Source of the DNA: Dickeya solani IPO 2222
GTDB taxonomy: Bacteria; Pseudomonadota; Gammaproteobacteria; Enterobacterales; Enterobacteriaceae
Reading direction: 5' to 3'
Assembly: GCF_001644705.1 (NCBI RefSeq)
Contig: NZ_CP015137.1
Span: 4,020,001-4,052,000 of the forward strand
Length of the DNA stretch: 32,000 nt
Shown here piece after piece: positions 10,767-25,297 of this stretch. A program made the translations under genes and the position numbers. The notes under the pieces were generated by a model that saw only the letters and a list, made by a program, of their open reading frames with translations, made no database searches and had not been told where the DNA came from. The first letter of the stretch is position 1. Every line of letters begins with the position of its first letter.

Positions 10767-11984
10767 CTATGGAGCGACTGAGACAGTGGATGCCTGTTGA
10801 TGCTCAGGTTTCCCGGCGGGCATTCCGGCGACAACCTGATTACCGATGGCATACACGGCGCACCCGGCGGCGCCTGGGCGCTGCTGGCAGTTTTTAAGTG
10901 CCTGTTTAGCGGCTTCCCGCATAGTTCGCATACCGTATGCCGCGCCCCAGTTACCCTTCGAGTCAGTCGCAAACGCTTTCTCGTAACGCTGACTGACGTC
11001 GTAATAGCTGAAATTCTCACGTCCGGCGGCATTCAGGTGGGCAGGATATGGCAGATGCGTTTCGGGAAGCGCGACAATTTCTTTGAACGGAAGATGCTGC
11101 TGCTCCAGAAACCCGGCTACTTGCTGCCACCAGAAACTTTCCGGTGCACTTTCTATAAACGTGTGCCCGTTTTCTTCGAAAGCAGGCATCAGAATGAATT
11201 CTGCGTTGCCTCCACCACGTTGATACGCATTCAACATCTCTCTGGCCATGTCAGGGGGAAAGAGATGGTCATTCTGGGTGTAAAGCCAGAGCGTAGGAAT
11301 ACGTGCCGCCCGTCCGTACAATTCGAACGCCTTTAATAGCCCTGCTTTATCACAAAATGATTTTCCATCAATCGCGCCTCTTCCCCCGTCAAAACTAATA
11401 ATAGCCTGTACACCTGCCGGATTCACCGCGCTGGTCGCTATGACAGCAAACCCTCCCGCAGACATTCCGGTAAGGATTGCCTTGTCTTGTGATGCCCAGG
11501 GCTGGCGACGGATCGCAGCAAGCGCAGCCGTGATATTATTTTTATCTATTGTTCCTGCTCGCATGTGCCGGGGCTCATTGCAGGAACTCCCTTCACCCTC
11601 CGTCGTTCCGCTTGATTGCCCGTATCCTTGGCGAAGAACGGTGACAGCAGCGTAGCCGTGCCGTGCAAACGCAATAGCTGCAGACGAGAACTGGGTTGGC
11701 GTTGCCATCATGCGGTTAAATACTGGGGAAGAGCTGCCATTTGTTATCAGCACTACGGGCAGTCGACCGGTACTGACGGGACGGGTAACGAATGCATCCA
11801 GCGTTGCTGGTTGACCGTTATCCAGCGTCACTTGCAGTGAAAGGGGTTCCCTTATCAGGCCGGCAAGTTGTTGCCGACTGTCCGATGAAGCGGCTGTCGG
11901 CGCGGCATTTGTCGACGCTGTGAAAACAAGAAAAATGAAAGATAGCGATATTATTCTGAGACAAGCCATGAAGATCTGTTGCAT
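10767..11984 (-). CDS. Exported dienelactone-hydrolase-like alpha/beta hydrolase with an extra Cys-containing C-terminal module
   Basis: Signal peptide (MACLRIISLSFIFLVFTASTNA/AP) and nucleophile elbow GMSAGG. The C-terminal ~90 aa (..KGNWGAAYGMRTMREAAKQALKNCQQRPGAAGCAVYAIGNQVV) resembles, from memory, the DUF4189 type of secreted-protein module. Confidence 0.8.
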   Translation of the reverse strand: MQQIFMACLRIISLSFIFLVFTASTNAAPTAASSDSRQQLAGLIREPLSLQVTLDNGQPATLDAFVTRPVSTGRLPVVLITNGSSSPVFNRMMATPTQFSSAAIAFARHGYAAVTVLRQGYGQSSGTTEGEGSSCNEPRHMRAGTIDKNNITAALAAIRRQPWASQDKAILTGMSAGGFAVIATSAVNPAGVQAIISFDGGRGAIDGKSFCDKAGLLKAFELYGRAARIPTLWLYTQNDHLFPPDMAREMLNAYQRGGGNAEFILMPAFEENGHTFIESAPESFWWQQVAGFLEQQHLPFKEIVALPETHLPYPAHLNAAGRENFSYYDVSQRYEKAFATDSKGNWGAAYGMRTMREAAKQALKNCQQRPGAAGCAVYAIGNQVVAGMPAGKPEHQQASTVSVAP

Positions 11985-12385
11985 CAGTGCTAATCCTTAT
12001 TGGTGAATGTGTAGTGTACAAGTGTTCAAAAAAAAGACTTTTGTGGCTGACTAGTGTTACTAACATAACGAAATGCATCAGGTGCTTAGATACGGCTTCG
12101 TTGAAGTCTGTTGATGATCTCCATGTTCAGATCGCTCGACACAAAAACGAATTTATTGAACGATAAAGTCATAATCGAAAAAGATAAAATCTATTACGCC
12201 AGAATTGGTACCTGCCGATATATCATTTTATAATTGAATTAGGTTTTCGCCTGAGTGATTACTTTTAACGGTGGAGATTGTTGCTAATTATTACCCTCGA
12301 AAAGAAATGCATTCAGGGGGAATTTATGAATGTGGCCTCATCTCTAAAAAATTGAAAAGATACCTATGAATTACAGCACTGAGGG

Positions 12386-12673
12386 TCATCCTCTGTGTGC
12401 ATGGCGATGATGAGCAGGATTGCATTCTTGATTCGTTCCTGGCAGATAATATTTTCCATCGGAAGAGGGCGTTGTTCCTCCAGGGCAACCGTTCATGCCG
12501 GGTTTCCCATTTTTACCGCCCGGAAGTCCAGCCCCTCCGGCCTGACTAACAGAAACCAACAAAGTGCCTTTTGTTTCACCTCTATTTTGGCTGACGATAT
12601 CGTCGTGAGCAGCATAGGTCATAGAGGAAAATCCGCAGGTAACTAAATAAATAAAAACCATTGTTTTATTCAT
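12386..12673 (-). CDS. Small exported Gly/Pro-rich hypothetical protein
   Basis: A 95-aa ORF with a clear signal peptide (MNKTMVFIYLVTCGFSSMTYA/AH) followed by GGAGLPGGKNGKPGMNGCPGG. I recognise no homolog. Confidence 0.5.
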   Translation of the reverse strand: MNKTMVFIYLVTCGFSSMTYAAHDDIVSQNRGETKGTLLVSVSQAGGAGLPGGKNGKPGMNGCPGGTTPSSDGKYYLPGTNQECNPAHHRHAHRG

Positions 12674-13069
12674 ATCCTACCTTTTACGTTTTCGACGTCA
12701 TCGACGGATAGTTATTAAGTCTAGCTACAGTTCAATAATTTTCATCTCTCTTCACTGACAAGTGATTCTTGGATCGTCATCTTTCTTTCACATTATTTTA
12801 CTATCAGGTACCTGAGTATAAGATGAATCACTGCCGTGCTGCTGATAAGCATCTGAACATAGAGTCGGGCAGATATCATTACATTCATTATTTCAAAATA
12901 TTATCTTTATTGACAAATAACCTACAAGCACAACCTTCTGACTATCGCCATGAAAATCTGGAGTACCTTATTTAATATAATAGAATAGAGGGAATGATAA
13001 AATAAAATTATCATTCCCGGTGCGAACGTTAGCATATTTAATTAATGAAATATCAATTTAGTACCTAAT

Positions 13070-13442
13070 GTCTTGGGGCACCAGGTAAGTGTCAAGATAG
13101 TTGGCACCTCCCGGTTGATTAGGCAGCTCACTTTTCTCGTTCTGGATCCAGCATTACCGCGCCTTCCGGTTGCCAGTTTCTTATTTTTCCCGACCAACGT
13201 GCTGGCCGTTCTGTTTTTACCTTTCTGTACGCTTCATTGTTACGCCCCCATTGGTCATTAGCATTTTTGATGGGTGGTAACAACTATCCTGACAGAGGGG
13301 CTTTTCAGTTGATACGATATTTAAGATATCATAGACGTCAACTGCCCGGATTAACCAACAGGTACAGACCTTGGGAATCTGAAAATTTGAAGGGCTTTGC
13401 AGATGGTTTTAAGTTGCGGATTTTTGAGTCGTTAAGAGACAT
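13070..13442 (-). pseudogene. P4-type (DUF4102-containing) tyrosine integrase, degraded N-terminal remnant
   Basis: The minus strand from ATG 13442 reads MSLNDSKIRNLKPSAKPFKFSDSQGLYLLVNPGS*, which is the hallmark N-terminus of P4-like island integrases. After the stop, similarity continues in another frame (..YRIN*KAPLSG*LLPPIKNANDQW..) with further stops. No catalytic domain follows. The left limit is approximate. Confidence 0.75.
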
Positions 13443-13560
13443 TTGGGGGTCACTCCGTCATCGAACCAGCCTGACTCCAAATCTGACCACCAAATTCTCC
13501 CGATGCAGAGGGAAACTGAAAATGCATCGGGAAGGGTTTTCACACTATCATGTTAGATAT

Positions 13561-13597
13561 AAAAGCAAAAAGCAGATGCCTTTCGACATCTGCTTTT
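13561..13597 (-). terminator. Rho-independent terminator immediately 3' of the tRNA-Asn-derived repeat (probably the native tRNA terminator)
   Basis: AGCAGATG (13571-13578) pairs with CATCTGCT (13587-13594) around an 8-nt loop. On the minus strand it is followed by TTTTTGCTTTT, and a T-run also follows on the plus strand. Confidence 0.7.
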
Positions 13598-13604
13598 CTG
13601 AATC

Positions 13605-13620
13605 TGGCTCCTCTGACTGG
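13605..13620 (-). repeat. 16-nt copy of the 3' end of tRNA-Asn (att-type direct repeat marking the distal ICE boundary)
   Basis: The minus strand reads CCAGTCAGAGGAGCCA, identical to the last 16 nt of enterobacterial tRNA-Asn (...GGTTCGAGTCCAGTCAGAGGAGCCA) as I remember it. The adjacent 60 nt do not encode the rest of a tRNA, so this is a repeat and not a gene. Confidence 0.75.
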
Positions 13621-14123
13621 GATCGCCTTTGCCAATAATTGGCTAATAAGTAAGCTAAATCAGAATCCACTTCCTGTCAAGACCACCAGAATGACCACCA
13701 TTTGATTGAATGTCGAATGAGATCTAATTATCTTAACAAGGTAACCCTTTGATTTATGGATTGGGAATTCCGAAAAACAAAGAGGGTGTTTTAATAAAAA
13801 CTTGATAAATAATGGTTTTTTTTGATTTCACAAAGAGATCTTAGGTAAATACTTCACTAAACGAGCATTTTATTGATAGCAACTATTTGAAATAGTTTGG
13901 GGCTTAGAAACAGCGGAGGCTCTCTGTGTAACACAAGATACCCGCCAGATGAACAGCTATTGTTTTTAATTGCATGTTTTTTAAATGATTTTCTCGCCAT
14001 GTGACATCCTCAGGTTCGATCATAAAGTTTGGTCTAAATGATTTTCTTGAGTAGAATAAGAAGAACTATTCTTGTCAACTTTATGTCATTGAATAACAAT
14101 TAGTTAGGTTGTGTATGTGACGA

Positions 14124-15200
14124 ATGGATACTAAATTGATTGCAATAGATTTCTTTTGTGGATGTGGGGGAGCTAGCGAAGGGCTACGTCAGGCCGGTTT
14201 TGACATTGTTCTTGGCATTGATGTAGATCAGCAGGCCTCAGAAACATACAAAGCTAACTTCCCTGATGCTGATTTCATCTTCGATGATATCAGAAATGTA
14301 ACTGTTGAAAGGGTTGCGAACTCTATAGCATTCAAAAGTGCAGATGGTTTGCTTTTAAGTGCCTGCGCCCCTTGCCAGCCTTTCTCACAGCAAAACAAAT
14401 ATAAAAACAAAGATGATGAAAGGATTTGTCTACTAGACGAAACTCACCGCTTCGTTTCAAGACTTTTACCAGAATATATTTTATTAGAAAATGTTCCAGG
14501 TATACAGAAAATTGATGGCAGTAAAGAAAGTCCTTTCACAAGATTTATTTCTTTGCTTGATAAGCTAAACTATCACTATGTGTATTTTGTGGCAAATGCT
14601 GAAAAATATGGCGTACCGCAAAGAAGAAAACGGTTTGTTCTTCTGGCCAGTCTGCTAGGACCAATATCAATACCAGAGCCAACTCATGATATAGAAAATT
14701 CACCTGTAAAAACAGTTAGAGAATTTATTGGTGAATATCCAAAACTTGCATCGGGAGAAGTCGATAAAAATGATGAACTACATCGTTCGGCGATCCTAAC
14801 TGAGTTGAATTTAGAGAGAATAAAAAATACCCCAGAAGGAGGGGATCGCAGGGACTGGCCGACCAATTTAATCAACACTTGTCACAAAGATTATACTGGC
14901 CATACAGATACCTATGGCAGAATGTCATGGGATAAACCTGCTCCGACTTTGACAACAAAGTGCAATAGTTATTCGAATGGACGCTTTGGTCACCCAGATA
15001 TAACACAAAATCGAGCTATAAGTATTAGAGAAGCTTCTCGACTACAAACATTTCCAAAAAAATATATATTTAAAGGTTCTTTTAATTCGATGGCGAAACA
15101 AATTGGAAATGCTGTCCCTTGTGAGTTAGCTCGACAATTTGGTCTGCACTTCATTGAGCATAATGAGGCTTCAAAGAGAGATAATCATGGCAAATTTTAA
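14124..15200 (+). CDS. DNA (cytosine-5)-methyltransferase
   Basis: All key C5-MTase motifs are present in order: I FFCGCGGASEG, IV SACAPCQPFS (catalytic Cys), VI LLENVPG, VIII QRRKRFVLLAS, and X GNAVP. A variable target-recognition region lies between VIII and X. Confidence 0.93.
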   Translation: MDTKLIAIDFFCGCGGASEGLRQAGFDIVLGIDVDQQASETYKANFPDADFIFDDIRNVTVERVANSIAFKSADGLLLSACAPCQPFSQQNKYKNKDDERICLLDETHRFVSRLLPEYILLENVPGIQKIDGSKESPFTRFISLLDKLNYHYVYFVANAEKYGVPQRRKRFVLLASLLGPISIPEPTHDIENSPVKTVREFIGEYPKLASGEVDKNDELHRSAILTELNLERIKNTPEGGDRRDWPTNLINTCHKDYTGHTDTYGRMSWDKPAPTLTTKCNSYSNGRFGHPDITQNRAISIREASRLQTFPKKYIFKGSFNSMAKQIGNAVPCELARQFGLHFIEHNEASKRDNHGKF

Positions 15201-18162
15201 GACAAGAGCTAGAACCTTAGACTTATTAGGCCGACAACAGATTGCGGGCATCCCTACGGCCATAAATGAGCTATTAAAAAATGCTCATGATGCTTATGCT
15301 GATCATGTTGATATAGATTATTTCCGTAGGAAAAGCCTTTTTATTATCAGAGATGATGGCGTAGGTATGTCAAGAACTGACTTTGAAAATAGATGGCTTA
15401 CATTAGGTACTGAGTCGAAAGTTCAACATACAAACGCATCTCTTCCCCCAGTAGATGAATCTAAAAAATTTAGACATCAGATGGGGGAGAAAGGTATAGG
15501 TCGCCTCGCTATAGCCTCAATAGGTAAACAGGTATTAATAATAACCAAGGCTAAAAACACTAATGAGATAACGGCTGCATTTATTAATTGGCAAATATTT
15601 GAACTTCCTGGGTTGAATTTAGATGATATCGTTGTTCCGACCAAAACATTTAAACAAATTCCAGATGTCGATCAAGTAAACTCTATGAAGTCTGAGTTGC
15701 TAGATTCAGTCGATATTTTATTCAGTAAAGATTCTTTAAGTGAAAAAAAATACTTAGAAATAAAAGAAACTATAACATCCTTTTCTATTTGCCCAAAAAC
15801 GCTGAGCAAAAAATTAATTCGGTTTAGCTCCTTTGATAGTAATGATTCAGGAGGTACGATCTTTATCATTTCTCCCGTTGATGAAATTCTGAATTCAGAT
15901 ATCGATGGTGATGGTAATGATAAAGAGGCTACAAAAATAGAAAAAATGTTGATGGGTTTTCATAATACAATGACGATATGTCATCCTGAACCTTTGTTAG
16001 ATATCGTATTCAGAGATTATAGAAGTAATGATGATACTTATATTGATATTATTGACAAAGAGCACTTTTTCACTAGTGAGGATTTTGAACAAGCAGATCA
16101 TCATTTTCATGGGTTTTTTGACGAATATGGGCAGTTTAAAGGTAACATAAGAATTTATCATGATAAAAACTTTGAACATATAGTCAATTGGACTGGGAAT
16201 AACCTAAATCTTACCAGTTGTGGTCCATTTGAAATAAACCTTGCTTATGTTCAGGGTGATAGAAAACATTCAATAATGGCTAATGAAGATTATGCCCGAG
16301 TTACATCCAAATCAGATAAATTTGGTGGTTTATATATTTATAAAGATAATATTAGAATTTTACCTTATGGTGATTCTGATTATGATTATCTGGAAATTGA
16401 AAAAAGACGATCTAAACATGCTGGTTCTGCTTTCTTTTCGTATAGGAGGATGTTTGGAGTTATAAGTCTTTCGCAAAATGAAAATTTTAGATTAAAAGAA
16501 AAAGCTGGGCGTGAAGGGTTTATTGAAGATCAAGCATACAAACATCTCAGAGATATTCTTAAGAACTTCTTTATCCAACTGGCTGCTGATTTTTTCCGAG
16601 ATGATATAAAAGCGGGCCCAAAAGCAGAAATTTGGGCGACAAAAAGAAATGAGTTAGTGTCTTCTCACAAAGCATTAGAGAAACGAGAAAAGCAAGCTAA
16701 GCTAAAAAAAGCTAAATTTGAATCTGCTCTTAGCTATTTCTTTGAACATCATTCAAATGGATTAATTGAACAAGATATAAATAATATTCTGACAGAAAGT
16801 GAGCATAAATTTCACAGCGTATACTCAATTAAGGACCCTGACATAGCTAGTCAGAAAATAATTGATGTTGAATCTCAGACTAGAGAAGAGATTAATGCAT
16901 ATAAACGCTCTATTATTGTTCCCACCCCTAGGGGATTTTTAATTAGAGGAGAGCTGAAAGAAGATTATAATACATATCTAACGACCTTGCAGGAGTTAGA
17001 GAGTACATGTTTTCAGCCAGCCATCGACAAAATAGATCAATTGGTTGATAAAGCAATTAATGATTATCAAATAAAAATAAGCAAACGTAAGCGTCTAGAA
17101 CAGGCGGTTGATTTTATTTCTATTGAAGCTAGAAAAGTTAACGCTGAAAAAAGAAAAAGCACGGAACAAGTTGTTCTGGATATAAACAAAAGAGTTAAAG
17201 AGTTAACATCAGATTTAATGATTGATCTTGATAATCAAATTCGCATTGTAAAAGACAAATTTAAACACATATCTATAGAAAGTGAATCTGATATTGACTT
17301 GGTCGCTAAACGAAATGAATTAGCAGCAGAAATTACTAATGTTAGCGAAAGGAATACAAGCATTTTAGATACTATAATCAGACAACTAGAGGGGGTTTAC
17401 TGGGAGAAAGATGAAGATAATAATTATATAACCAGTGAACAAATAACCGAAGTGCTTGGTGAAGAAGTTGATGCTTTGAGAGAAAAAATTCATGCTGATG
17501 TTGAGTTGAGTCAGCTTGGTTTAGCTGTAAGTATCATTCATCATGAATTCAATAGTACTGTTAGATCGATAAGAACTAGTCTTAAAGATTTGAAGGCCTG
17601 GAGCGATGTCAATGAAGATCTTGAAGGTGTCTATAAAAACATTAAGATTAACTTCGAACATTTAGACGGTTATCTCAATCTCTTTACCCCGTTAAATAGA
17701 AGATTACAGAGGAAAAGAGAAGAAATTAAACTTCTTGAAATCAAATCATTCTTAATCGATTTGTTTAAAAATAGAATGGATAGGCATAATATATCATTCA
17801 AACATACAAATGGATATTCAAAGGGGAAACTTTATGGTTTCCGTTCATCCTTTTATCCAGTTTTCGTAAACGTAATCGATAATGCAATATATTGGCTCAA
17901 TGAAAGTAATAGTAGCGACAAAACTATAAGATTACACGCCGATGATAACGGCAATGTCTATATATCTAATAATGGACCTATCGTCGATCATCGTGATAAA
18001 GACAGAATATTTAGCCTAGGCTTTTCAAGAAAATATAATGGTCGAGGAATGGGGTTGCATATCAGCAATGAAGTTCTGGAATCTATAGGTTATAAATTGA
18101 CGCTAGATGAACCAAGAGAGGGTTCAACTGTTACATTTAAAATTTCCATGGTGGAAAAATAA
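15187..18162 (+). CDS. 991-aa dual-module ATPase: N-terminal MORC/Hsp90/MutL-like GHKL ATPase, a K/E-rich helical linker, and a C-terminal histidine-kinase-like module
   Basis: N-terminal Bergerat motifs: E28-x3-N32-x2-D35 (NELLKNAHDA), D56-x-G58-x-G60 (DDGVGM) and G100-EK-G103-I-G105 (GEKGIGRL). The C-terminal part has an H-box-like IIH785-H786-EFNSTVRSI, an N-box VNVIDNAIYW, a degenerate G1 (ISNNGP) and a G2 box G952-R-G-M-G-L. ATG 15187 follows GAGAG and overlaps the MTase stop by 14 nt. The ORF-track start at 15139 is less likely. Confidence 0.85.
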   Translation: MANFKTRARTLDLLGRQQIAGIPTAINELLKNAHDAYADHVDIDYFRRKSLFIIRDDGVGMSRTDFENRWLTLGTESKVQHTNASLPPVDESKKFRHQMGEKGIGRLAIASIGKQVLIITKAKNTNEITAAFINWQIFELPGLNLDDIVVPTKTFKQIPDVDQVNSMKSELLDSVDILFSKDSLSEKKYLEIKETITSFSICPKTLSKKLIRFSSFDSNDSGGTIFIISPVDEILNSDIDGDGNDKEATKIEKMLMGFHNTMTICHPEPLLDIVFRDYRSNDDTYIDIIDKEHFFTSEDFEQADHHFHGFFDEYGQFKGNIRIYHDKNFEHIVNWTGNNLNLTSCGPFEINLAYVQGDRKHSIMANEDYARVTSKSDKFGGLYIYKDNIRILPYGDSDYDYLEIEKRRSKHAGSAFFSYRRMFGVISLSQNENFRLKEKAGREGFIEDQAYKHLRDILKNFFIQLAADFFRDDIKAGPKAEIWATKRNELVSSHKALEKREKQAKLKKAKFESALSYFFEHHSNGLIEQDINNILTESEHKFHSVYSIKDPDIASQKIIDVESQTREEINAYKRSIIVPTPRGFLIRGELKEDYNTYLTTLQELESTCFQPAIDKIDQLVDKAINDYQIKISKRKRLEQAVDFISIEARKVNAEKRKSTEQVVLDINKRVKELTSDLMIDLDNQIRIVKDKFKHISIESESDIDLVAKRNELAAEITNVSERNTSILDTIIRQLEGVYWEKDEDNNYITSEQITEVLGEEVDALREKIHADVELSQLGLAVSIIHHEFNSTVRSIRTSLKDLKAWSDVNEDLEGVYKNIKINFEHLDGYLNLFTPLNRRLQRKREEIKLLEIKSFLIDLFKNRMDRHNISFKHTNGYSKGKLYGFRSSFYPVFVNVIDNAIYWLNESNSSDKTIRLHADDNGNVYISNNGPIVDHRDKDRIFSLGFSRKYNGRGMGLHISNEVLESIGYKLTLDEPREGSTVTFKISMVEK

Positions 18163-18163
18163 A

Positions 18164-19813
18164 ATGAAAACATTCAATGAATTTTCAACAGCAGTTACAG
18201 ATCATTTTATTCAGAATGTTATCTTCATTGATGATAAAGCATATAATAAAAATGGTCCAAAAGATCAGCACGAATTTGATGCACAAGAAGTCACAAAAAT
18301 ATTTTCTAAGAAGGGAAAAATTTGTGCTGTCTATAAGCCTCAGTTAGTTAGTGATCTAGAATACTTAACTTCAATTGCGAACAAGTCTGATGTAACAATA
18401 CTTGATTGGCAAATAGTGCTTGATGAGGAACCAGCTGAAGGTGGTTCACAAAATGATGAGGAAGATGCTGAGGAGGATGATGTAAGAGGTGTGTACACGA
18501 AGAAAATTATCACATCTCTTCTTGGTGATATTGATAATCAACACTGTATAAAATTGATCCTCATTTATACTGGTGAGGTCGATCTCCCTAAAATTGCATC
18601 AGAAATTAATTCGGCATTGACTGAAAAGAACATTTCTGGTTTCAGTATTAATCAAGATGATCCATGCACTGTTATGTCTAACAATTGTAAAATCATGGTC
18701 ATATCAAAAGCGAATGGAGGAGTCGGCCGAGCCCAACATTTACCACAATTGGCTAATAAAACAAAAAGTTATGAAGAATTACCTGATTTCATATCATTAC
18801 AATTTACGGAAATGACAAGTGGGTTATTGTCTAATTTCGCAATGGAATCTCTTGCAGAAATTAGAAAGAACTTTCATCATATTTTGACTCTCTTTTCTAA
18901 GGAGTTAGATGCAGCTTATTTAGCACATCAAACTTTGTTACCTAACACTTTTGATGCAAATGAACTGTTAGTCCAGCTGTTGAGCGATACCTTTTCATCA
19001 ATTATTAGATACAAGAATCTAAATCAATTTTTAAATGAGGACAAAGTTAAATTATGGCTTGATCATAATATTGAAGATGGAGTAAAACCATTCTATAAGG
19101 ACGATGGTACTCAAGACAATGTTTTTTACCAAAGAAACGCGGATATATTATTGAGATTATTACGTTCTGATTCTGATGTTAATAACAAATTTACTAGTTC
19201 TTTAATTAGCAGTGATGGGCAACAACTATCAACAAAAAAAATCGGTATTCTAATAAAAAAATATGCCACAACCTTGTTTGCAGAATTTGATAAGACAGAG
19301 GAAATTAATAAAAATTTTGCAAAGTTATGCTACCACCGAAGTGCAATTTTTTCGCCTCACCACCTCCCATTTTTATCACTAGGTACGGTTGTTAAAAGTA
19401 CTCTCGATAATGGGGGTTACTATATTTGCATTCAACAAAGATGTGATTCCGTCAGAATTCAAGAGGGAGAGATGCGTCGTTTTCTTTTTATTTCATTAGA
19501 AGAGGTTAATGATGGTGGTTTTAACTTTTTAACCCCTAATGGTATTAAACTTAAAATTGATAAGTCTACATATTCTCTACGAACAGTTAAGTTCTCGGGA
19601 ACTAATGGTTTCGCTCTTGCAACAAAATGTGAAATTGATAGCAAAAAATATTTTGAACCATCTTATTACTCCAAGGGAAAAGAACATTCCGAGAGGTTTG
19701 AGTTTATTATTGAGCTGAAAGAACTATACGCTCAGCGCATAGTTGAGGAATATAGCTCAAGTCTATCTCGTGTAGGTTTAGATGAACCTGAATGGGTTAG
19801 ACGGTTGAACTAG
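18164..19813 (+). CDS. 549-aa protein: receiver (REC)-like N-terminal domain plus an unassigned C-terminal domain
   Basis: ATG 18164 lies 1 nt after the upstream stop. Alternating beta/alpha propensity carries REC-like landmark residues in the canonical order: VIFID23-D24, DVTILD81W, LILIYT136G and MVISK182. An acidic insert (EEPAEGGSQNDEEDAEEDD) follows D81. I recognise no motif in the C-terminal ~350 aa. Confidence 0.8.
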   Translation: MKTFNEFSTAVTDHFIQNVIFIDDKAYNKNGPKDQHEFDAQEVTKIFSKKGKICAVYKPQLVSDLEYLTSIANKSDVTILDWQIVLDEEPAEGGSQNDEEDAEEDDVRGVYTKKIITSLLGDIDNQHCIKLILIYTGEVDLPKIASEINSALTEKNISGFSINQDDPCTVMSNNCKIMVISKANGGVGRAQHLPQLANKTKSYEELPDFISLQFTEMTSGLLSNFAMESLAEIRKNFHHILTLFSKELDAAYLAHQTLLPNTFDANELLVQLLSDTFSSIIRYKNLNQFLNEDKVKLWLDHNIEDGVKPFYKDDGTQDNVFYQRNADILLRLLRSDSDVNNKFTSSLISSDGQQLSTKKIGILIKKYATTLFAEFDKTEEINKNFAKLCYHRSAIFSPHHLPFLSLGTVVKSTLDNGGYYICIQQRCDSVRIQEGEMRRFLFISLEEVNDGGFNFLTPNGIKLKIDKSTYSLRTVKFSGTNGFALATKCEIDSKKYFEPSYYSKGKEHSERFEFIIELKELYAQRIVEEYSSSLSRVGLDEPEWVRRLN

Positions 19814-19851
19814 ATATTTAGTACATAAATGTATAATTTTTTAGATATTGT

Positions 19852-19889
19852 CTGACAGTTTCCGGTAAGCAATAAAAGGTAGCTGTCAG
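19852..19889 (+). terminator. Possible weak terminator after the three-gene operon
   Basis: CTGACAG (19852-19858) pairs with CTGTCAG (19883-19889), followed by TATTATTTT. The loop is long (24 nt), so this is a weak call. Confidence 0.3.
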
Positions 19890-20173
19890 TATTATTTTCA
19901 TATATTATTATTTTTGGCGAAAAATATGTTTCTGGCATAAGGTGATTAAGAAACATTCTGGTTTAATCCATAGCTGTTATTATGACTATGACTATATGAA
20001 AAACAGTATTTAATAGAATATACATCATTGTTTATGAAATTTATTTTCTCTTTGTGGACTTTTCTCTCCCAGTGTGACTGGAAGAGTTAAGTAGAAATCA
20101 AAAAATTAAAATATTGGCCATGTTATCTTAACGTAAAAAGGACCACTTACTTTTAGTCCTGATAAACATAAGG

Positions 20174-20932
20174 TCAATCTTTATCTTCAATCTTTCCCAT
20201 GATTGCACTGATAAATGCGGTGTGCGGTTGCATATTTAATTCTGATGACATTAAATCCGCCATACGATCAATCAATCCATCATGAGTCGGATGTTTGAAT
20301 GGAAAGATGTCGCCATCTTGGAAAAATTTCCCAGCAGCTATACGCTTAATGGTAGCCGTATCGACCGCTTCGATATCTTTACTTAAAATCCTTAATTTCT
20401 CTGCATCAGGTATATCTACAACATCAATGTATCCATCAGGTAATCCAAGCGCTCTGGTTACATCATCCCAATTATATCCTAAGGAAGTTTTTCCTTCGAT
20501 TGTAAAAGCTTGGGCTGGGAAAGACGCGAATGGGAAGGCTTCTTGGCATTTCAATAATAAAGTTGCTAATTTCATTAATTGCTCTGAATAGCATTCACGA
20601 ATATCCCTTTCTTTCAGTTCAGGGGGAACTTTTTGTGATTAACCAACAAAACGATATGTACATAAAGCATTTGGCAGAAACCCGCCAAAATAAGATACAG
20701 GTCCCTCTTTTTGCGTTAAATTTCTTAATTCCACAAAAAAATGCATACTCAGATCAGATTTCATTTCTGATTGTTGAAGTCCATACCACGTTGAAAACCC
20801 ATCTACCCCTGACATAGCCTTTTGGAGGACAAACGTCACACTACGGCTAGCAGAAAGAAAAGCATTTAGTACAAACTGGAATTCTAAACCATCTAAGTTT
20901 ATTGAACGCTTAAAGAAATATTCCGCTTCCAT
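20174..20932 (-). pseudogene. Hypothetical ~252-codon gene interrupted by a single in-frame TAA
   Basis: ORFs 20639..20932 and 20174..20575 are in the same frame. The only interruption is TAA at 20639-20641 (..TYRFVG*SQKVPPELKERDIRECYSEQLMKLATLL..). The region is AT-rich like the neighbouring operon. I recognise no homolog. Confidence 0.55.
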
Positions 20933-21322
20933 AAGCTTTTCAACAGGATGACGTAAACTCGTGAAAATATGTGCTATTTTGTATCTCTACGATCTGAAGG
21001 TAATAATAAGATATATGACATATGAATATTTTATCATAGCTCATTACAAAAACAGAGTTCACATTATTACGTAGTAAGTAATTGAAACCCAATTTCACCA
21101 CTGCAAAGTAAGGGGCGCTACATCCCGTTATGCAGGGTCAGTTTTTTCTCCCACGTGCTTTCCGTTCCTCGTATCTCTTCCGGTTAATCGTTTCCCAACA
21201 CAACCCGTCTCGCAAGGGTAAATGGCACGCATTCTGCGCCCTTGCGCGCCGGAACGATGCCGGGAAAGCGAACCGTCAGGCGATACGAAGACGAAAATCA
21301 CACCACTGACGGAGAAAAAACC

Positions 21323-22267
21323 ATGACGATTTCCCTGCATACCCAGACTAGCGCCCCTAACACCGCAGCGGCGACCAGCGTATCCCCGCTGGACCCGTCA
21401 GGCTCCTCAAAAACGAAATTTTCCAAAACCAAAACCGATATCTACCAGACTGTCACCGACAGCATCATCACCGCGTTGGAGGCCGGCGTGAAGCCCTGGA
21501 CGTGTCCGTGGCAGCGTGTGCCGGGCATGTCCGGTTTACCTTCCAACTTCGCAACCGGCATCGCGTATAGCGGAATGAATATCATGCTGTTGTGGTGCAG
21601 TGCATCAGAGCAGGGCTTCGGTGATTCACGCTGGATGACCTACAAACAGGCGCAGGCAGTAGGCGGGCAGGTTCGCAAAGGCGAGCACGGCACGACCGCC
21701 ATTTTTTATACAACCCTGGAAAAAGAAAACGAAGACGGCGAAGTCGACCAGATCCCGATGCTGAAAACGTTCACCGTGTTCAATGTTGAACAAATTGACG
21801 GCCTTCCCCTGAATACCGAAGCTGTCAGCCCCGCTGAGACGTTCGAGCCGTTACCACAGGCTGAAAACCTGTTGCGCCGCAGTGGTGCCCGCATCGTAGA
21901 GAAAGGTCAAAATGCCTTCTTCAAACCGTCAACTGATGAAATCTGGTTGCCGGAGCGCCATCTTTTTTCCGATGCCGCTAATTTCTACGCTACCGGTCTG
22001 CATGAACTGGTTCACTGGAGCGGAGCAAAAACACGTCTTAACCGTGTAATGAAAGGGAAGTTTGGTAGTGAAGGTTACGCCTTTGAAGAGTTGATCGCTG
22101 AGTTGGGAAGCGCGTTCTTGATGGCGGATCTGGGGATCGTTGGCGAGGTTCAGCATGAAAGCTATATCGCTTCCTGGCTGAAAGCATTGAAGAACGACAA
22201 GCGCTATATTTTCAAAGCGGCCAGTGCAGCATCGAAAGCGCACCGTTATCTAATGGATAAGGTTTGA
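21323..22267 (+). CDS. ardC: ArdC-type antirestriction protein (N-terminal ssDNA-binding domain plus C-terminal zincin metalloprotease)
   Basis: N-terminal ArdC/DUF1738 pattern (VKPWTCPW...PSNFATGIAYSGMNIMLLW...RWMTYKQAQAVGGQVRKGEHGTTAIFY). C-terminal HExxH (LHELVHWSG) with FGSEGYAFEELIAELGSAFL. ATG 21323 lies 8 nt after GGAG. The ORF-track start at 21242 is a TTG. Confidence 0.88.
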   Translation: MTISLHTQTSAPNTAAATSVSPLDPSGSSKTKFSKTKTDIYQTVTDSIITALEAGVKPWTCPWQRVPGMSGLPSNFATGIAYSGMNIMLLWCSASEQGFGDSRWMTYKQAQAVGGQVRKGEHGTTAIFYTTLEKENEDGEVDQIPMLKTFTVFNVEQIDGLPLNTEAVSPAETFEPLPQAENLLRRSGARIVEKGQNAFFKPSTDEIWLPERHLFSDAANFYATGLHELVHWSGAKTRLNRVMKGKFGSEGYAFEELIAELGSAFLMADLGIVGEVQHESYIASWLKALKNDKRYIFKAASAASKAHRYLMDKV

Positions 22268-22346
22268 GTTGAAGCACAAGACGCCGCAAAGGAAGGCGGC
22301 GTTAACCTGATATCGGAGCAGACAGTGTGACGGCGTTTTCAATTTC

Positions 22347-22389
22347 CCTGAGAATGTTCCGGGCATTCAATGCCCGGAACATTCTCAGG
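22347..22389. repeat. 43-bp perfect palindrome (21-bp arms around a single central base)
   Basis: CCTGAGAATGTTCCGGGCATT-c-AATGCCCGGAACATTCTCAGG. It lies in the ardC-ccdA intergenic region. No U-tract follows on either strand. Confidence 0.9.
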
Positions 22390-22587
22390 CTGCGAGTGCG
22401 GGCGGCAAAGAGCCCGCGCATCCCGCAAACGGCGTTTTTACACCGCTGATTGCTGTAACCGACGGCTCAGGTATGGCGGCTGACTGTGACGTTTGCAGGA
22501 CTGCAACGGTAGCCGGGCCTGTTCTTGGTGTTATGATAAGTGTATTGTGCCGTGTAATGCACACGTATCTCATACAGGAGAGCAATC

Positions 22588-22824
22588 ATGACCGCGAAAC
22601 AACGCAACACGCAAAGCGTGACCATGACGGTGGAGCGTGCCTTACTGGTCCGGGCGCGTGAAGCGGGCATTAACCTGAGTGCCATCCTGACAACCGCCCT
22701 GGATGCAGAGCTTCGCCACCATGAAGCAAAAAAATGGCAGGAAGAGAACAGGGAAGCCATCGACGCATTAAACCGTTTTCATGATGAAAATGGCTGTTTC
22801 AGTGATGAATACAGGACGTTTTAA
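22588..22824 (+). CDS. ccdA: CcdA-family antitoxin
   Basis: A 78-aa protein. The C-terminal half (..AELRHHEAKKWQEENREAIDALNRFHDENGCFSDEYRTF) parallels F-plasmid CcdA (..RRLRAERWQAENQEGMAEVARFIEMNGSFADENRDW) from memory. It sits directly upstream of ccdB. Confidence 0.88.
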   Translation: MTAKQRNTQSVTMTVERALLVRAREAGINLSAILTTALDAELRHHEAKKWQEENREAIDALNRFHDENGCFSDEYRTF

Positions 22825-22826
22825 CC

Positions 22827-23141
22827 ATGCAATTCACCGTATACGGTAATACCGGGAAAAGCGCTGTTTACCCGCTGTTGCTCGATGTCACAAGCGATAT
22901 TATTGGGCAGTTGAATCGCCGGATAGTGATCCCGTTGCTCCCTGTTGAAAAGTATCCGGCAGGCCGCCGACCAGATCGTCTTGTCCCCGTCGTCAGGCTG
23001 ACGGACGGCAAAGAGTACGCCGTAATGACGCACGAGCTGGCAAGTATCCCTGTGCAGGCACTGGGGGCGGTGTTTTGTGATGCGTCTCAGTATCGTACTC
23101 AGGTAAAGGCCGCAATAGATTTCCTCATCGACGGCATTTAG
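22827..23141 (+). CDS. ccdB: CcdB-family gyrase-poisoning toxin
   Basis: MQFTVY....LLLDVTSDII....RRIVIPLL........P.V......Y.VMTHELASIPV..LG......IDFLIDGI is collinear with F-plasmid CcdB (MQFKVY..LFVDVQSDIID..RRMVIPL...MTTDMASVPV...INLMFWGI) from memory. The protein is 104 aa and starts 2 nt after ccdA. Confidence 0.9.
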   Translation: MQFTVYGNTGKSAVYPLLLDVTSDIIGQLNRRIVIPLLPVEKYPAGRRPDRLVPVVRLTDGKEYAVMTHELASIPVQALGAVFCDASQYRTQVKAAIDFLIDGI

Positions 23142-23395
23142 CCGTGGCTGTCGGGAGCCTGTTCCAGTTCGTCTATCGTGCGGAACAGAAACATCTCCCG
23201 GTTTTGGGCGTCAAACGGAACCGGAAGACCGTTCCTTGCCCACGTTCTGATACTGTCAAACAGCCTAACCAGACCGTTGCTGTTAGCATCCAGAAAATTA
23301 GCCCACCATTGCAGCATCAGACGACGCTGTTCAAGGTATTTGGAGATCTTACTCTCTGCCCGCTCCGTGCCAGAGGCGGACATTGCTAACTTCAT
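23138..23395 (-). pseudogene. C-terminal scar of a P4-type integrase gene
   Basis: The translation contains SKYLEQRRLMLQWWANFLDA, the conserved extreme C-terminus of P4-like integrases (..AEYLEERR.MMQWWADYLD..). No catalytic R-H-R-Y region precedes it, and the rest of the 85-aa ORF is unrelated. Confidence 0.5.
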
Positions 23396-23570
23396 CTGAG
23401 GTTAGATATGGCGCCCCGTGTGTCGTGTATCCACCGTGAACGAAGACAGGGATGAAGCCGAGGATAAACATCGGAAGGCAGAACCGATTCCTGCATCGTA
23501 TACATTACAAAAAATACGCAAAAAAGCCCAATATGTAACGTTTACGATACAATTATATGCCGTGTATACA

Positions 23571-24881
23571 TCACCAATTTATCCTGAGTGATTCCCATAC
23601 ACTATCAATCAGTGTTTTTGGTACTCCCTCATCTTCAGCATATTCTCGCCAGCCAGACACAATTTTTATGGTTTCATTAATAATGTTTTTCGCTTTACTT
23701 GGGCGAAGGCTGGTTATCTGGGTTGCGACGGAAAGAAGGTCATTGATCTGAAAATTATCTCGTTTTCCAGCTAACGTAAGTTGATGAGCATTAACCCATG
23801 GAGAATCGGCCTTGTAACTCCATGCTACATCGAACGCAGGGGCTAGTGTCCACTTATATTCATCGTTAACCATGAACGACCAGTTCTTAGTATGATCATC
23901 ATGATTGCGCGCAACGACATTGAATACCATGCGACGATATATTTGTTCTTGCTCTTTATTGGACAATCCTAACTGCCGACACACTGCGAGTAGCTCCTCA
24001 TAGCTGAAGGCACCAGGCTTCCTGAAATCAGCATGAGCTATACCGCACAAACTTAGAACATGGTATTTCTGGTTATTAACTCGGTCAAAACGCCTCGTCA
24101 TAAAATGAGCTCTATCGGAGTTCCTCTCGCGTAATAATTCGCACTCTGACATTACAATACCCGCATCCCTAGCCATAAGGTAATACACGTATTCCATTAC
24201 ACCATACCCTTTAGGGTCACCGAACGTCTCCTTATCCGATTTATGCTCTTGTACTCCATCAAACTTGAGAAGGTAATGCTCAAAACCATCAGGGGCGTCA
24301 ACCTGCCCAGAACGTATCTCTGATCTGTCAGCATTAACGGCCACAACAGCTTTCGCCCTTGCCCCGCCGGCAGAAGTACCTATCTGAAGCAACTTAGCCA
24401 TGGATGATTCTTCATAATCATTAAGCTGAAGTTTATCTCGAGAATCTAAGACTTTCTGAGCCATTGTTACAAGCTCACCGATTAAAATTGGTTGGCTATC
24501 AACTTCCTGGTTGTTGTTAGTCGGCTGATATTCAAGCGCACCCATTCCGCGTGATCCAGTATAGAGCAAACGATCCAACGCTAAAAATTGTGATTTATCC
24601 TGACCGCTCCTTGCTAACCAAGCATTGATTAATGAGTTACCGAAATCGTCAGGCAGTGAATCGGCAAAAACTGCAGGCAATCCCTTATACGTCTCGAAAG
24701 CCAGAGCAGAGAAAGTAAACGTTTGATTACTTAATGGTAAATAGATTGGCGAAAGACTAAACCCTTCAGACTGCCATTCTTCCGTATATTCGAAAGTAGC
24801 AAAACCGCTATCATCGAGATATGCCAAATACCCAACTGGAATACTATCAAAGAGAACGTTGCAAGCTCTAGTTATCATCAT
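23571..24881 (-). CDS. hipA: HipA-family Ser/Thr kinase toxin
   Basis: Full-length at 436 aa. N-terminal HipA coupling domain (GYLAY..., LPDDFGN), and catalytic region NHDDHTKNWSF followed by LAPAFDV. The 4-nt overlap (ATGA) with the upstream HTH gene is as in hipBA. Confidence 0.92.
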   Translation of the reverse strand: MMITRACNVLFDSIPVGYLAYLDDSGFATFEYTEEWQSEGFSLSPIYLPLSNQTFTFSALAFETYKGLPAVFADSLPDDFGNSLINAWLARSGQDKSQFLALDRLLYTGSRGMGALEYQPTNNNQEVDSQPILIGELVTMAQKVLDSRDKLQLNDYEESSMAKLLQIGTSAGGARAKAVVAVNADRSEIRSGQVDAPDGFEHYLLKFDGVQEHKSDKETFGDPKGYGVMEYVYYLMARDAGIVMSECELLRERNSDRAHFMTRRFDRVNNQKYHVLSLCGIAHADFRKPGAFSYEELLAVCRQLGLSNKEQEQIYRRMVFNVVARNHDDHTKNWSFMVNDEYKWTLAPAFDVAWSYKADSPWVNAHQLTLAGKRDNFQINDLLSVATQITSLRPSKAKNIINETIKIVSGWREYAEDEGVPKTLIDSVWESLRINW

Positions 24882-25285
24882 TCAACCTTAAATTTTTTCC
24901 GGTTCGCGAGCATGGCTCTAACACCATTCTGAGAAAATGTTTTTGCATTTGAAGAATTTGTTACTCGGTAATGTGCATTACCGGCAACTCCGCTGCTATG
25001 TCGAACCTTTCTTTTTGAATTGTACGCGATAATGTCTGACGGTCGCATTGTTGGCTCAGGCACTAAGGCATCAAGCCCCTCAAGCAAATTTAGCTGTCGA
25101 AGCACCGCTATAAAGGTGCTGAAGCTACACGTTCCTTTTTCTAGCCTTGCATATGTCGGCCTGCTTATGCCGAGACTATCCACCAGTGCCTCCTGTGAAA
25201 TGCCCCTGGCTTGTCGATATACTTCAAGCCGTCTAAACAACTCTTTATTGATGGCAAAATCAGTCATTGTTTTGGTTATTTTCAT
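24878..25285 (-). CDS. hipB: HipB-like XRE-family antitoxin/repressor with a long C-terminal extension
   Basis: HTH segment (LEVYRQARGISQEALVDSLGISRPTYARLEKG) directly upstream of hipA and coupled to it. It is 135 aa from ATG 25285, which is preceded by GGGGGT. The C-terminal ~60 aa have no obvious counterpart in the 88-aa E. coli HipB. Confidence 0.85.
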   Translation of the reverse strand: MKITKTMTDFAINKELFRRLEVYRQARGISQEALVDSLGISRPTYARLEKGTCSFSTFIAVLRQLNLLEGLDALVPEPTMRPSDIIAYNSKRKVRHSSGVAGNAHYRVTNSSNAKTFSQNGVRAMLANRKKFKVE

Positions 25286-25297
25286 AGGTACCCCCAA

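Follow-up and report, generated by a model that had tools for sequence, protein, structure and literature searches.

A cytosine methyltransferase gene followed by genes for a cytoplasmic histidine kinase and a receiver-domain protein forms a cassette that was described in 2021 by Bellieny-Rabelo, Pretorius and Moleleki (Genome Biol Evol; PMC8011034), who defined the Pfam families PF19191 and PF19192 from the same genes of Pectobacterium. Linkage of kinase and receiver was reported as 91.6% over 644 regions, and the upstream C5 methylase and a downstream enrichment of Vsr, HNH_2 and type I/II restriction-modification (R-M) genes were noted (PMC8011034). The 'group 1' kinase architecture was given as HATPase_c_3 + HEF_HK + HATPase_c, and a paraMORC origin and a cytoplasmic two-component system regulating R-M were proposed (PMC8011034). 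The Pectobacterium genes were found to be induced in planta, and Dickeya solani was in the genome set (PMC8011034). The present study concerns one such cassette, a three-gene operon at positions 14124 to 19813 of a stretch of 32,000 nucleotides from Dickeya solani IPO 2222 (contig NZ_CP015137.1, positions 4,020,001 to 4,052,000 of the forward strand). The whole of this stretch is called the window below.

The operon in the window has a PF19192 gene, a gene with PF19191 and both HATPase domains, the adjacency of these two and an upstream C5 methylase. The cassette surveyed here and that of 2021 share the Pfam families, the group 1 architecture, the adjacency, the upstream DNA_methylase and the Vsr/HNH_2/R-M neighbourhood, and nothing structural differs between them. 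A preliminary description of this DNA had offered the trio as a candidate new system. That claim fails, because the PF19191/PF19192 cassette, including that of Dickeya solani, is already in PMC8011034; the cassette and both signature domains have been known since 2021, and their discovery is not new. What is new here is the three-gene census, the universal core without a nuclease, and a gene 3 module that has no fold or family assignment and carries a set of conserved residues. Also new are the absence of co-variation with the target-recognition domain (TRD) of the methylase, a natural methylase swap, and the position of the gene 3 module, which always stands behind a receiver domain among the best 150 matches. 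The Vibrio cholerae WASA paper was considered and set aside, as it concerns WonAB, GrwAB and a GHKL-Shedu system, which is different from the cassette.

Detocs resembles the cassette in its layout. Its three genes encode the DtcA kinase, the DtcB buffer receiver and DtcC, a receiver fused to a purine nucleoside phosphorylase (PNP); a soluble histidine kinase is proposed to sense infection and to phosphorylate a receiver fused to an output that does not bind DNA (10.1101/2023.01.24.525353). The kinase-to-receiver relay drives the defence effector, and mutants of the His and of the Asp abolish defence (10.1101/2023.01.24.525353). The sensor of Detocs consists of tetratricopeptide repeats (TPRs), whereas the sensor of the cassette is a paraMORC GHKL ATPase. 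The cassette also differs in having no stand-alone buffer receiver, no PNP ATP nucleosidase or other known effector domain, and a methylase within the operon. The DHp and receiver families of the two systems are different.

The MORC/paraMORC ATPases of R-M operons (Iyer, Abhiman and Aravind 2008, PMC2292703) are similar to the gene 2 product in their N-terminal GHKL and S5-like module with intact ATP motifs, and they adjoin a cytosine methylase and often Vsr or HNH genes. However, the C-terminal domains of paraMORC1-5 are of restriction endonuclease (RE) fold, TIR or unknown, their partners are helicases or nucleases, and a kinase-fused paraMORC with a receiver partner was not described there (PMC2292703). 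The type II enzymes BbrUII/HgiDII (NF050001) share an N-terminal GHKL segment and a C5 methylase partner with the cassette, but the match is confined to the first ~120 residues of gene 2, behind which come the coiled coil and the kinase. Classical type II R-M systems are alike in their orthodox C5 methylase, mobility, defence-island context and tolerated decay of the non-methylase genes. In contrast to them, the cassette has no recognisable endonuclease, its genes 2 and 3 show no sign of tracking the recognition domain of the methylase, and a predicted ATP- and phosphorelay-dependent apparatus takes the place of a simple nuclease.

Results

Gene order and conservation of the cassette

The operon consists of the following three genes.

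14124..15200, + strand: gene 1, C5 cytosine DNA methyltransferase, 358 residues (open reading frame (ORF) list and Pfam/NCBIfam profiles)
15187..18162, + strand: gene 2, paraMORC-coiled coil-histidine kinase fusion, 991 residues (ORF, Pfam, AlphaFold2 (AF2), Foldseek)
18164..19813, + strand: gene 3, receiver-domain protein with an uncharacterised output module, 549 residues (ORF, Pfam, AF2, alignments)

The ORF of gene 2 is listed from a TTG at 15139, and its homologues all begin at the ATG at 15187 (MANFKTRA..., with M1, A2 and F4 invariant). With this ATG taken as the true start, gene 2 overlaps the stop of gene 1 by 14 nt. Gene 3 starts at the ATG at 18164 (MKTFNEF..., matching the homologues), which leaves a gap of 1 nt to gene 2. 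The three same-strand genes, the overlap and the spacer agree with the coordinates in the preliminary description.

The alignment of gene 3 was searched against one genome per species, which gave 76 loci, 73 of them with enough DNA for the locus survey. In 70 of the 73, the methylase, the kinase and the receiver gene follow one another in this order on one strand with abutting or overlapping frames. The cassettes are found in Gamma-, Alpha- and Deltaproteobacteria, Bacteroidota, Patescibacteria, Spirochaetales and Kiritimatiellota. The three-gene synteny for which a homologue survey had been suggested is thus conserved, often among defence genes. The identities of the kinase and the receiver protein co-vary (Spearman 0.74).

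Clustering of the flanking ORFs at the 73 loci revealed no fourth universal gene. The most frequent neighbour is Vsr (31 loci), followed by an OLD/ABC-type ATPase of the HEC-04/AriA/PtuA-like kind (13 loci), a second C5 methylase (11 loci), an HNH_2 endonuclease resembling type II restriction enzymes (10 loci) and an McrBC-like pair (4-7 loci); type I R-M and PDC-S11 are among the others. Therefore, the trio makes up the core of the cassette, which usually sits in a defence island. The cassette is a horizontally mobile, self-contained three-gene module.

An integrity census found 65 of 78 loci intact. Among the loci that are not cut by a contig end, the receiver or the kinase gene alone is broken in four (L018, L070, L077 and L032), each with an intact methylase, and the methylase alone is broken once (L062), with a second C5 methylase directly upstream of it. 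These counts are low and include metagenome-assembled genomes; the asymmetry suggests decay in the direction predicted by R-M-like or addiction logic.

A decayed cassette was also seen in E. coli NN5 (L078, NZ_CP126348.1, 5789-24631), with 75% DNA identity to the operon of the window. It follows a tRNA-Leu integrase in an island. ISSen4 cuts the methylase short and IS903B interrupts the receiver gene, and the kinase gene is intact. Downstream are HNH, a PDC-S11 nuclease, a PtuA-like ATPase and a type I R-M system.

Gene 2, a paraMORC-histidine kinase fusion

Four parts of gene 2 can be distinguished.

15187..16596, + strand: GHKL (Bergerat) ATPase with transducer/S5-like part, a MORC/SMCHD1-like module, residues 1-470 (HATPase_c_3, Foldseek)
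16618..17496, + strand: long coiled-coil linker, residues ~478-770 (AF2 secondary structure)
17512..17712, + strand: DHp/H-box domain HEF_HK, residues 776-842 (PF19191, invariant HHEF motif)
17854..18147, + strand: catalytic ATP-binding (CA) domain of the kinase, residues 890-987 (HATPase_c)

The Pfam search placed three domains in gene 2 in the order HATPase_c_3 (24-136, 2e-17), HEF_HK PF19191 (776-842, 7.4e-29) and HATPase_c (890-987, 2e-17). All of them are above the Pfam cut-offs, and PF19191 is far above. In the AF2 model of gene 2 (predicted local distance difference test score, pLDDT, 70), 495 columns were aligned by Foldseek to the GHKL and transducer module of SMCHD1 (6mw7) with an E-value (E) of 3.5e-7. 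The GHKL residues E28, N32, D35, D56, G58, G60 and G100-G105 are invariant in 30 homologues. Residues 9-127 resemble the BbrUII/HgiDII restriction enzymes NF050001 with an E of 1.7e-20, at 73 bits against a cut-off of 550. The NCBIfam matches to MutL are negligible (E 0.002-0.014), and the match to MzaB, the ATPase of the MZA system (NF041932), is 15.9 bits with an E of 0.003, below the cut-off of 850 bits.

The linker is predicted by AF2 to be composed of helices at 478-523, 526-547, 551-576, 589-627, 633-693 and 705-737. It is the least conserved part of gene 2, with a mean identity of 0.49. Behind it, H785, H786, E787 and F788 are invariant in the homologues (n=30), and H786 is the likely phospho-acceptor, judging from the motif. 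The CA domain gave a profile match to ThkA (3a0t, 6e-10), and its residues N895, D898, N899, F942, G945 and G952-x-G954-x-G956, which make up the N, G1, F and G2 boxes, are invariant in the 30 homologues. When the AF2 model was searched with Foldseek, the DHp and CA domains matched the histidine kinases ZraS, HK853 and CpxA with an E of ~1e-8. As modelled, the C-terminal part of gene 2 is a true histidine-kinase fold. The Bergerat ATPase and the histidine-kinase-like module that had been read from the letters are therefore supported by Pfam, by the invariant residues and by Foldseek.

The ATP-binding residues of both GHKL domains and the HHEF H-box are invariant in the 30 homologues at identities down to 58%. 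The homologues are ~60% identical even in Bacteroidota, and their lengths are 990-999 residues. Gene 2 is the most conserved component of the cassette, with a mean pairwise identity of 0.61 (GHKL 0.75, DHp/CA 0.71). As a side observation, two phage families have matches in gene 2: phrog_8137, whose function is unknown, over residues 383-982 (3.5e-102), and phrog_6203 over residues 7-126.

Gene 3, a receiver protein with an output module

Gene 3 is divided into three domains, the second of which contains a homopolymer.

18206..18718, + strand: receiver (REC) domain, residues 15-185 (Response_reg_2 PF19192)
18779..19363, + strand: helical domain, residues 206-400, of which 291-400 are hypervariable (AF2 secondary structure)
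19234-19241, + strand: A8 homopolymer inside gene 3 (A7 in GCA_000400795.1; L077, 10001-11649)
19364..19813, + strand: beta-rich domain of seven strands and a C-terminal helix with a conserved tail, residues 401-549 (candidate output/effector)

Gene 3 matches PF19192 at 123 bits (cut-off 27; E 1.5e-35). Among 123 homologues with 25-46% identity to gene 3, the REC landmarks are conserved at 0.99 for D23, 0.89 for D24, 1.00 for D81, 0.91 for T136 and 0.98 for K182. In the AF2 model (pLDDT 82), D23/D24, D81, T136 and K182 are placed at the ends of strands beta1, beta3, beta4 and beta5. The Foldseek support for the REC fold is weak to moderate (3hdv with a template modelling (TM) score of 0.54 and an E of 0.08; RcsB weakly). 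The receiver landmarks reported earlier for gene 3 are thus upheld by PF19192 and by the conservation of the five residues, and to a weak to moderate degree by Foldseek. The sequence elements of a two-component pair are present in genes 2 and 3: H786-E787 in the DHp domain, the boxes of the CA domain, and the acidic pair, Asp, Thr and Lys of the REC domain. An acidic low-confidence loop, DEEPAEGGSQNDEEDAEEDD, lies at 18410-18490 (residues ~83-109), right after the predicted phospho-acceptor D81, and its character is conserved family-wide.

The 350 residues of gene 3 behind the receiver domain are conserved to differing degrees. Residues 291-400 have a mean pairwise identity of 0.23 against 0.44-0.48 in the adjoining parts and 0.40 for the whole protein. 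Over the 123 diverse homologues, G220, R234, D249 and H255 and the set of the beta-rich domain are conserved at 0.96-1.00; this set, G407, C422, Q424, C427, D428, R431, R536, G538, E543 and R546, is itself at 0.98-1.00. Neither residues 196-549 nor residues 401-549 matched any Pfam family up to an E of 10. A profile search gave no PDB sequence match for the C-terminal module, and a Foldseek search of the full-length AF2 model against PDB and BFVD gave no meaningful structure match for it. The weak Foldseek matches of gene 3 are to receiver, flavodoxin and caspase-type folds and are most likely due to the N-terminal receiver domain.

Two enzymatic readings of the module were tried and rejected. 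A PD-(D/E)xK reading would require D428 to be combined with (E/D)517-x-K519, which is ~90 residues and four strands away, and E510 is not well conserved in the 123 homologues. A HEPN reading was rejected because R234-x3-H238 is not conserved.

A profile of residues 196-549 was searched against 1.84 billion representatives, with clusters at 50% identity. It found 1557 cluster representatives, the best 150 of which all have the receiver-plus-module architecture. Therefore, there is no 'effector swap' among these best matches from which a function could be borrowed.

The public D. solani assembly GCA_000400795.1 is identical to the window across the operon except for one base. This sole difference is the A7 in place of A8, which splits gene 3 into 362 and 113 residues. 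The receiver gene is also split in Pectobacterium brasiliense 1692 (PMC8011034). The A8/A7 difference may stem from a sequencing error in the homopolymer or from phase variation that switches the gene off.

Gene 1, a C5 methyltransferase

Gene 1 matches TIGR00675 dcm with 1e-47 and DNA_methylase of Pfam with 9e-60, the latter from profile position 4 to 317 of 324. The motifs I, IV, VI, VIII, IX and X (FxGxG, PCQ, ENV, QRRKR, RExxRLQxFP and GNAVP) are visible in the translation, as had been noticed before. By sequence, the closest solved structures are the catalytic domains of eukaryotic DNMT1 (2e-27), followed by M.HaeIII (1e-19) and M.HhaI (3e-15). A DNMT1-like methylase adjoining a MORC-like ATPase echoes the eukaryotic pairing.

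The methylases of the cassettes have a mean pairwise identity of 0.49. Since the target-recognition region (0.48) is conserved as well as the catalytic core (0.49), most cassettes probably share a common methylation target, as far as conservation can tell. The methylase is also predicted to be active in vivo, since Vsr is the commonest neighbour of the cassette.

Searches for nucleases

No PD-(D/E)xK, HNH, PLD, Mrr, Vsr or other nuclease family was found in the three proteins with Pfam, NCBIfam and PADLOC, in agreement with what the first inspection of the operon had stated. Foldseek gave no nuclease structural match for gene 2 or gene 3.

Genomic setting

The operon is surrounded by the following features.

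11985..21100, strand not applicable: AT-rich island holding the operon (composition profile)
13338..13442, - strand: remnant of a P4-type tyrosine integrase, N-terminal 34 codons; the ORF reads MSLNDSKIRNLKP... and lies ~680 nt upstream of gene 1

In the composition profile, the GC content is 0.31-0.38 over ~12000-21000 and 0.50-0.56 on either side, so the AT-richness claimed for the operon relative to its surroundings is evident. On the left flank there are chromosomal genes (a dgo operon, LysR, a short-chain dehydrogenase/reductase, a glutathione S-transferase and hydrolases), and on the right flank ArdC, CcdAB, HipAB, a type IV coupling protein and a VirB11-like ATPase. Because chromosomal genes are on the left and conjugation, ArdC and toxin-antitoxin genes on the right, it is plausible that the operon lies at the border of an integrative conjugative element (ICE) in Dickeya solani. 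The operon had been placed at the very tip of the ICE cargo, next to an att repeat. The border position is plausible, but neither the repeat nor a tRNA was found, and the operon starts ~2.1 kb inside the AT-rich block and not at its edge. No tRNA was detected in the window, there was no convincing or above-chance direct repeat in 11000-22000, and the Rfam scan of the window found no RNA family.

Over 13301-13699 (- strand), the identity to the 5' ends of integrase genes from E. coli islands is 76-88%; the remainder of the integrase gene is missing. This integrase fragment lies between the island edge and the operon; therefore, the AT-rich block is a mosaic and not clean ICE cargo.

The ~2.1 kb of AT-rich DNA upstream of the operon (12000-14120) has no convincing gene, and its short ORFs have no family matches. 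It includes an ORF of 95 residues with a signal-peptide-like start (12386-12673, - strand) and a strong terminator-like hairpin (13567-13598, - strand). Two plus-strand promoter-like sites at 14001-14028 and 14072-14100 are both weak, and promoter-like sites are no commoner than in shuffles (22 against 29.4). The operon is separated from ardC by two small ORFs on the - strand. The first (20174-20575) has no match, and the second (20639-20932) is publicly annotated as Phage_lambda_Ea47-like and matches phrog_19262 with 1.7e-5. Directly to the right, at 21242-25297, are the ArdC anti-restriction protein (ArdcN and metallopeptidase) and the CcdA/CcdB and HipA/HipB toxin-antitoxin pairs, which are followed by conjugative transfer genes.

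Discussion

The order and coupling of the three genes, their domain identities, the conservation of the catalytic residues, the synteny across phyla and the frequent defence-island context are the observations from which a mechanism can be considered. We propose that the cassette is a methylation-linked self/non-self module in which a His-to-Asp phosphotransfer gates gene 3, and that it confers restriction-like immunity together with addiction. Being read from sequence, this proposal is, in our judgement, evenly poised between right and wrong. Resident DNA would be marked by the methylase. The gene 2 protein would dimerise through its GHKL head and its coiled coil, like MORC, MutL and SMCHD1, and would engage DNA with ATP. 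Contact with unmarked DNA, the presumed signal, would turn on the C-terminal kinase and lead to the autophosphorylation of H786. The phosphate would then move from H786 to D81 of the receiver domain of gene 3. Finally, the C-terminal module of gene 3 would have its activity released against the invader or the cell, which would make gene 3 the executor and defence the outcome. A mechanism of this kind had been put forward in the preliminary description and is reasonable, and Detocs is an experimental precedent for a phosphorelay that drives defence (10.1101/2023.01.24.525353).

The immunity could also be restriction-like without a conventional nuclease. A MORC-type clamp would read the methylation and signal through the phosphorelay to an output of unseen fold, which would be either an effector or a partner in DNA entrapment. 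This form of the proposal is put forward tentatively. A nuclease-free outcome such as MORC-type DNA entrapment is kept as a possibility because the universal core has no nuclease.

Several results weigh against the self/non-self module. In the output module of gene 3, no nuclease, protease, NADase or membrane motif can be recognised, nor is there a structural match, so that the label 'effector' is an assumption; its seven strands and C-terminal helix could equally well be a binding domain. PADLOC-DB v2.0.0 has no model for gene 2 or gene 3 and matched the methylase alone. Since its models match gene 1 only, PADLOC would probably take the locus for just an orphan or type II methylase. Sequenced plasmids hardly ever carry the cassette (1 of 72,556), and tblastn with gene 3 gave no match in 50,697 phage records. 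The literature on the cassette consists of the 2021 bioinformatic paper and incidental citations, and a later experimental study was not found.

The relation between the methylase and its partners is a further difficulty for the proposal. In a mirror-tree comparison with overall divergence controlled, co-variation with the TRD of the methylase was seen for none of the regions of genes 2 and 3 (partial correlations ≤0.16). At one locus (L009), the methylase is 31% identical to those of L007 and L008 (28% in the recognition region), while the kinase is 97% and the receiver protein 95% identical. At this swapped methylase a ~300-nt gap replaces the usual overlap, and the same alternative methylase type occurs in L002-L004. 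Such a swap is awkward for a sequence-matched restriction, unless the target is shared or the specificity is supplied by the methylase. Considering the swap and the absent co-variation, genes 2 and 3 probably have no recognition element tailored to each methylase. Either the target is fixed family-wide, or the methylase supplies the specificity, or the apparatus is a generic reader.

The self/non-self module has to be weighed against other explanations. The cassette could be a regulatory two-component system, in which a soluble kinase senses an intracellular cue such as the nucleotide pool or the state of the DNA, and gene 3 regulates the methylase, a nearby R-M system or other genes. The architecture is that of a kinase-regulator pair, and the Pectobacterium genes were induced in planta and proposed to control R-M (PMC8011034). 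In addition, the output module of gene 3 has no enzyme signature and its topology may be that of a binding domain. However, Pfam found no helix-turn-helix, winged-helix or other DNA-binding family in gene 3, and there is no restriction gene to control at most loci, the window included. A mobile AT-rich module amid defence genes is also unlike housekeeping regulators, and the invariant C422, C427, D428 and R431 are more suggestive of an active or metal site. We therefore consider a purely regulatory system unlikely.

Silencing or compaction of DNA is quite improbable as the function of the cassette. Here the paraMORC clamp itself would be the executor, condensing unmethylated incoming DNA like eukaryotic MORC/SMCHD1, and the kinase-receiver pair would tune or amplify the response. 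A universal three-gene core without a nuclease would suit such a function, as would the N-terminal 470 residues of gene 2, with their alignment to the SMCHD1 ATPase module and the long coiled coil behind them. Gene 2 is also the component that is conserved most (0.61; GHKL 0.75), and its independence from a particular methylase fits a generic reader. On the other hand, the explanation is pure analogy, and it leaves the strong conservation and constant presence of the gene 3 C-terminal module unexplained. To our knowledge, silencing of DNA by a bacterial MORC has not been shown, which also counts against it.

A role in methylation-coupled repair is very improbable. In such a role, the MutL-like ATPase and Vsr would handle the T:G mismatches that arise from the deamination of 5-methylcytosine, and the kinase relay would signal damage. 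The frequency of Vsr next to the cassette (31/73 loci) points in this direction, as does the kinship of GHKL + S5 proteins with MutL, whose recruitment to repair was discussed by Iyer et al. 2008 (PMC2292703). But Vsr is absent from the window and from more than half of the loci, and it is found with many C5 methylases whatever their partner. Moreover, the MutL matches of gene 2 in NCBIfam are negligible, and a location in mobile AT-rich defence islands is atypical of repair genes.

Lastly, a chance juxtaposition of an orphan methylase and an unrelated two-component pair is refuted by the cross-phylum synteny, with order and overlapping or abutting frames kept in 70/73 loci and a kinase-receiver linkage of 91.6% (PMC8011034).

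The interest of the operon lies in the biology of the cassette rather than in its discovery. The family is large and spread over many phyla; its gene 3 module alone makes up ~1,500 clusters at 50% identity. If the proposed mechanism is true, the cassette would bring together three themes that have so far been studied apart: DNA methylation that marks self, GHKL clamps of the MORC type, and two-component phosphotransfer. It would also offer a tractable bacterial model of a MORC-like ATPase that responds to methylation. If the nuclease-free clamp proves right, the cassette would be the first two-component relay inside an R-M-type system, and prokaryotes would have their own counterpart of the link between MORC and DNA methylation in eukaryotes.

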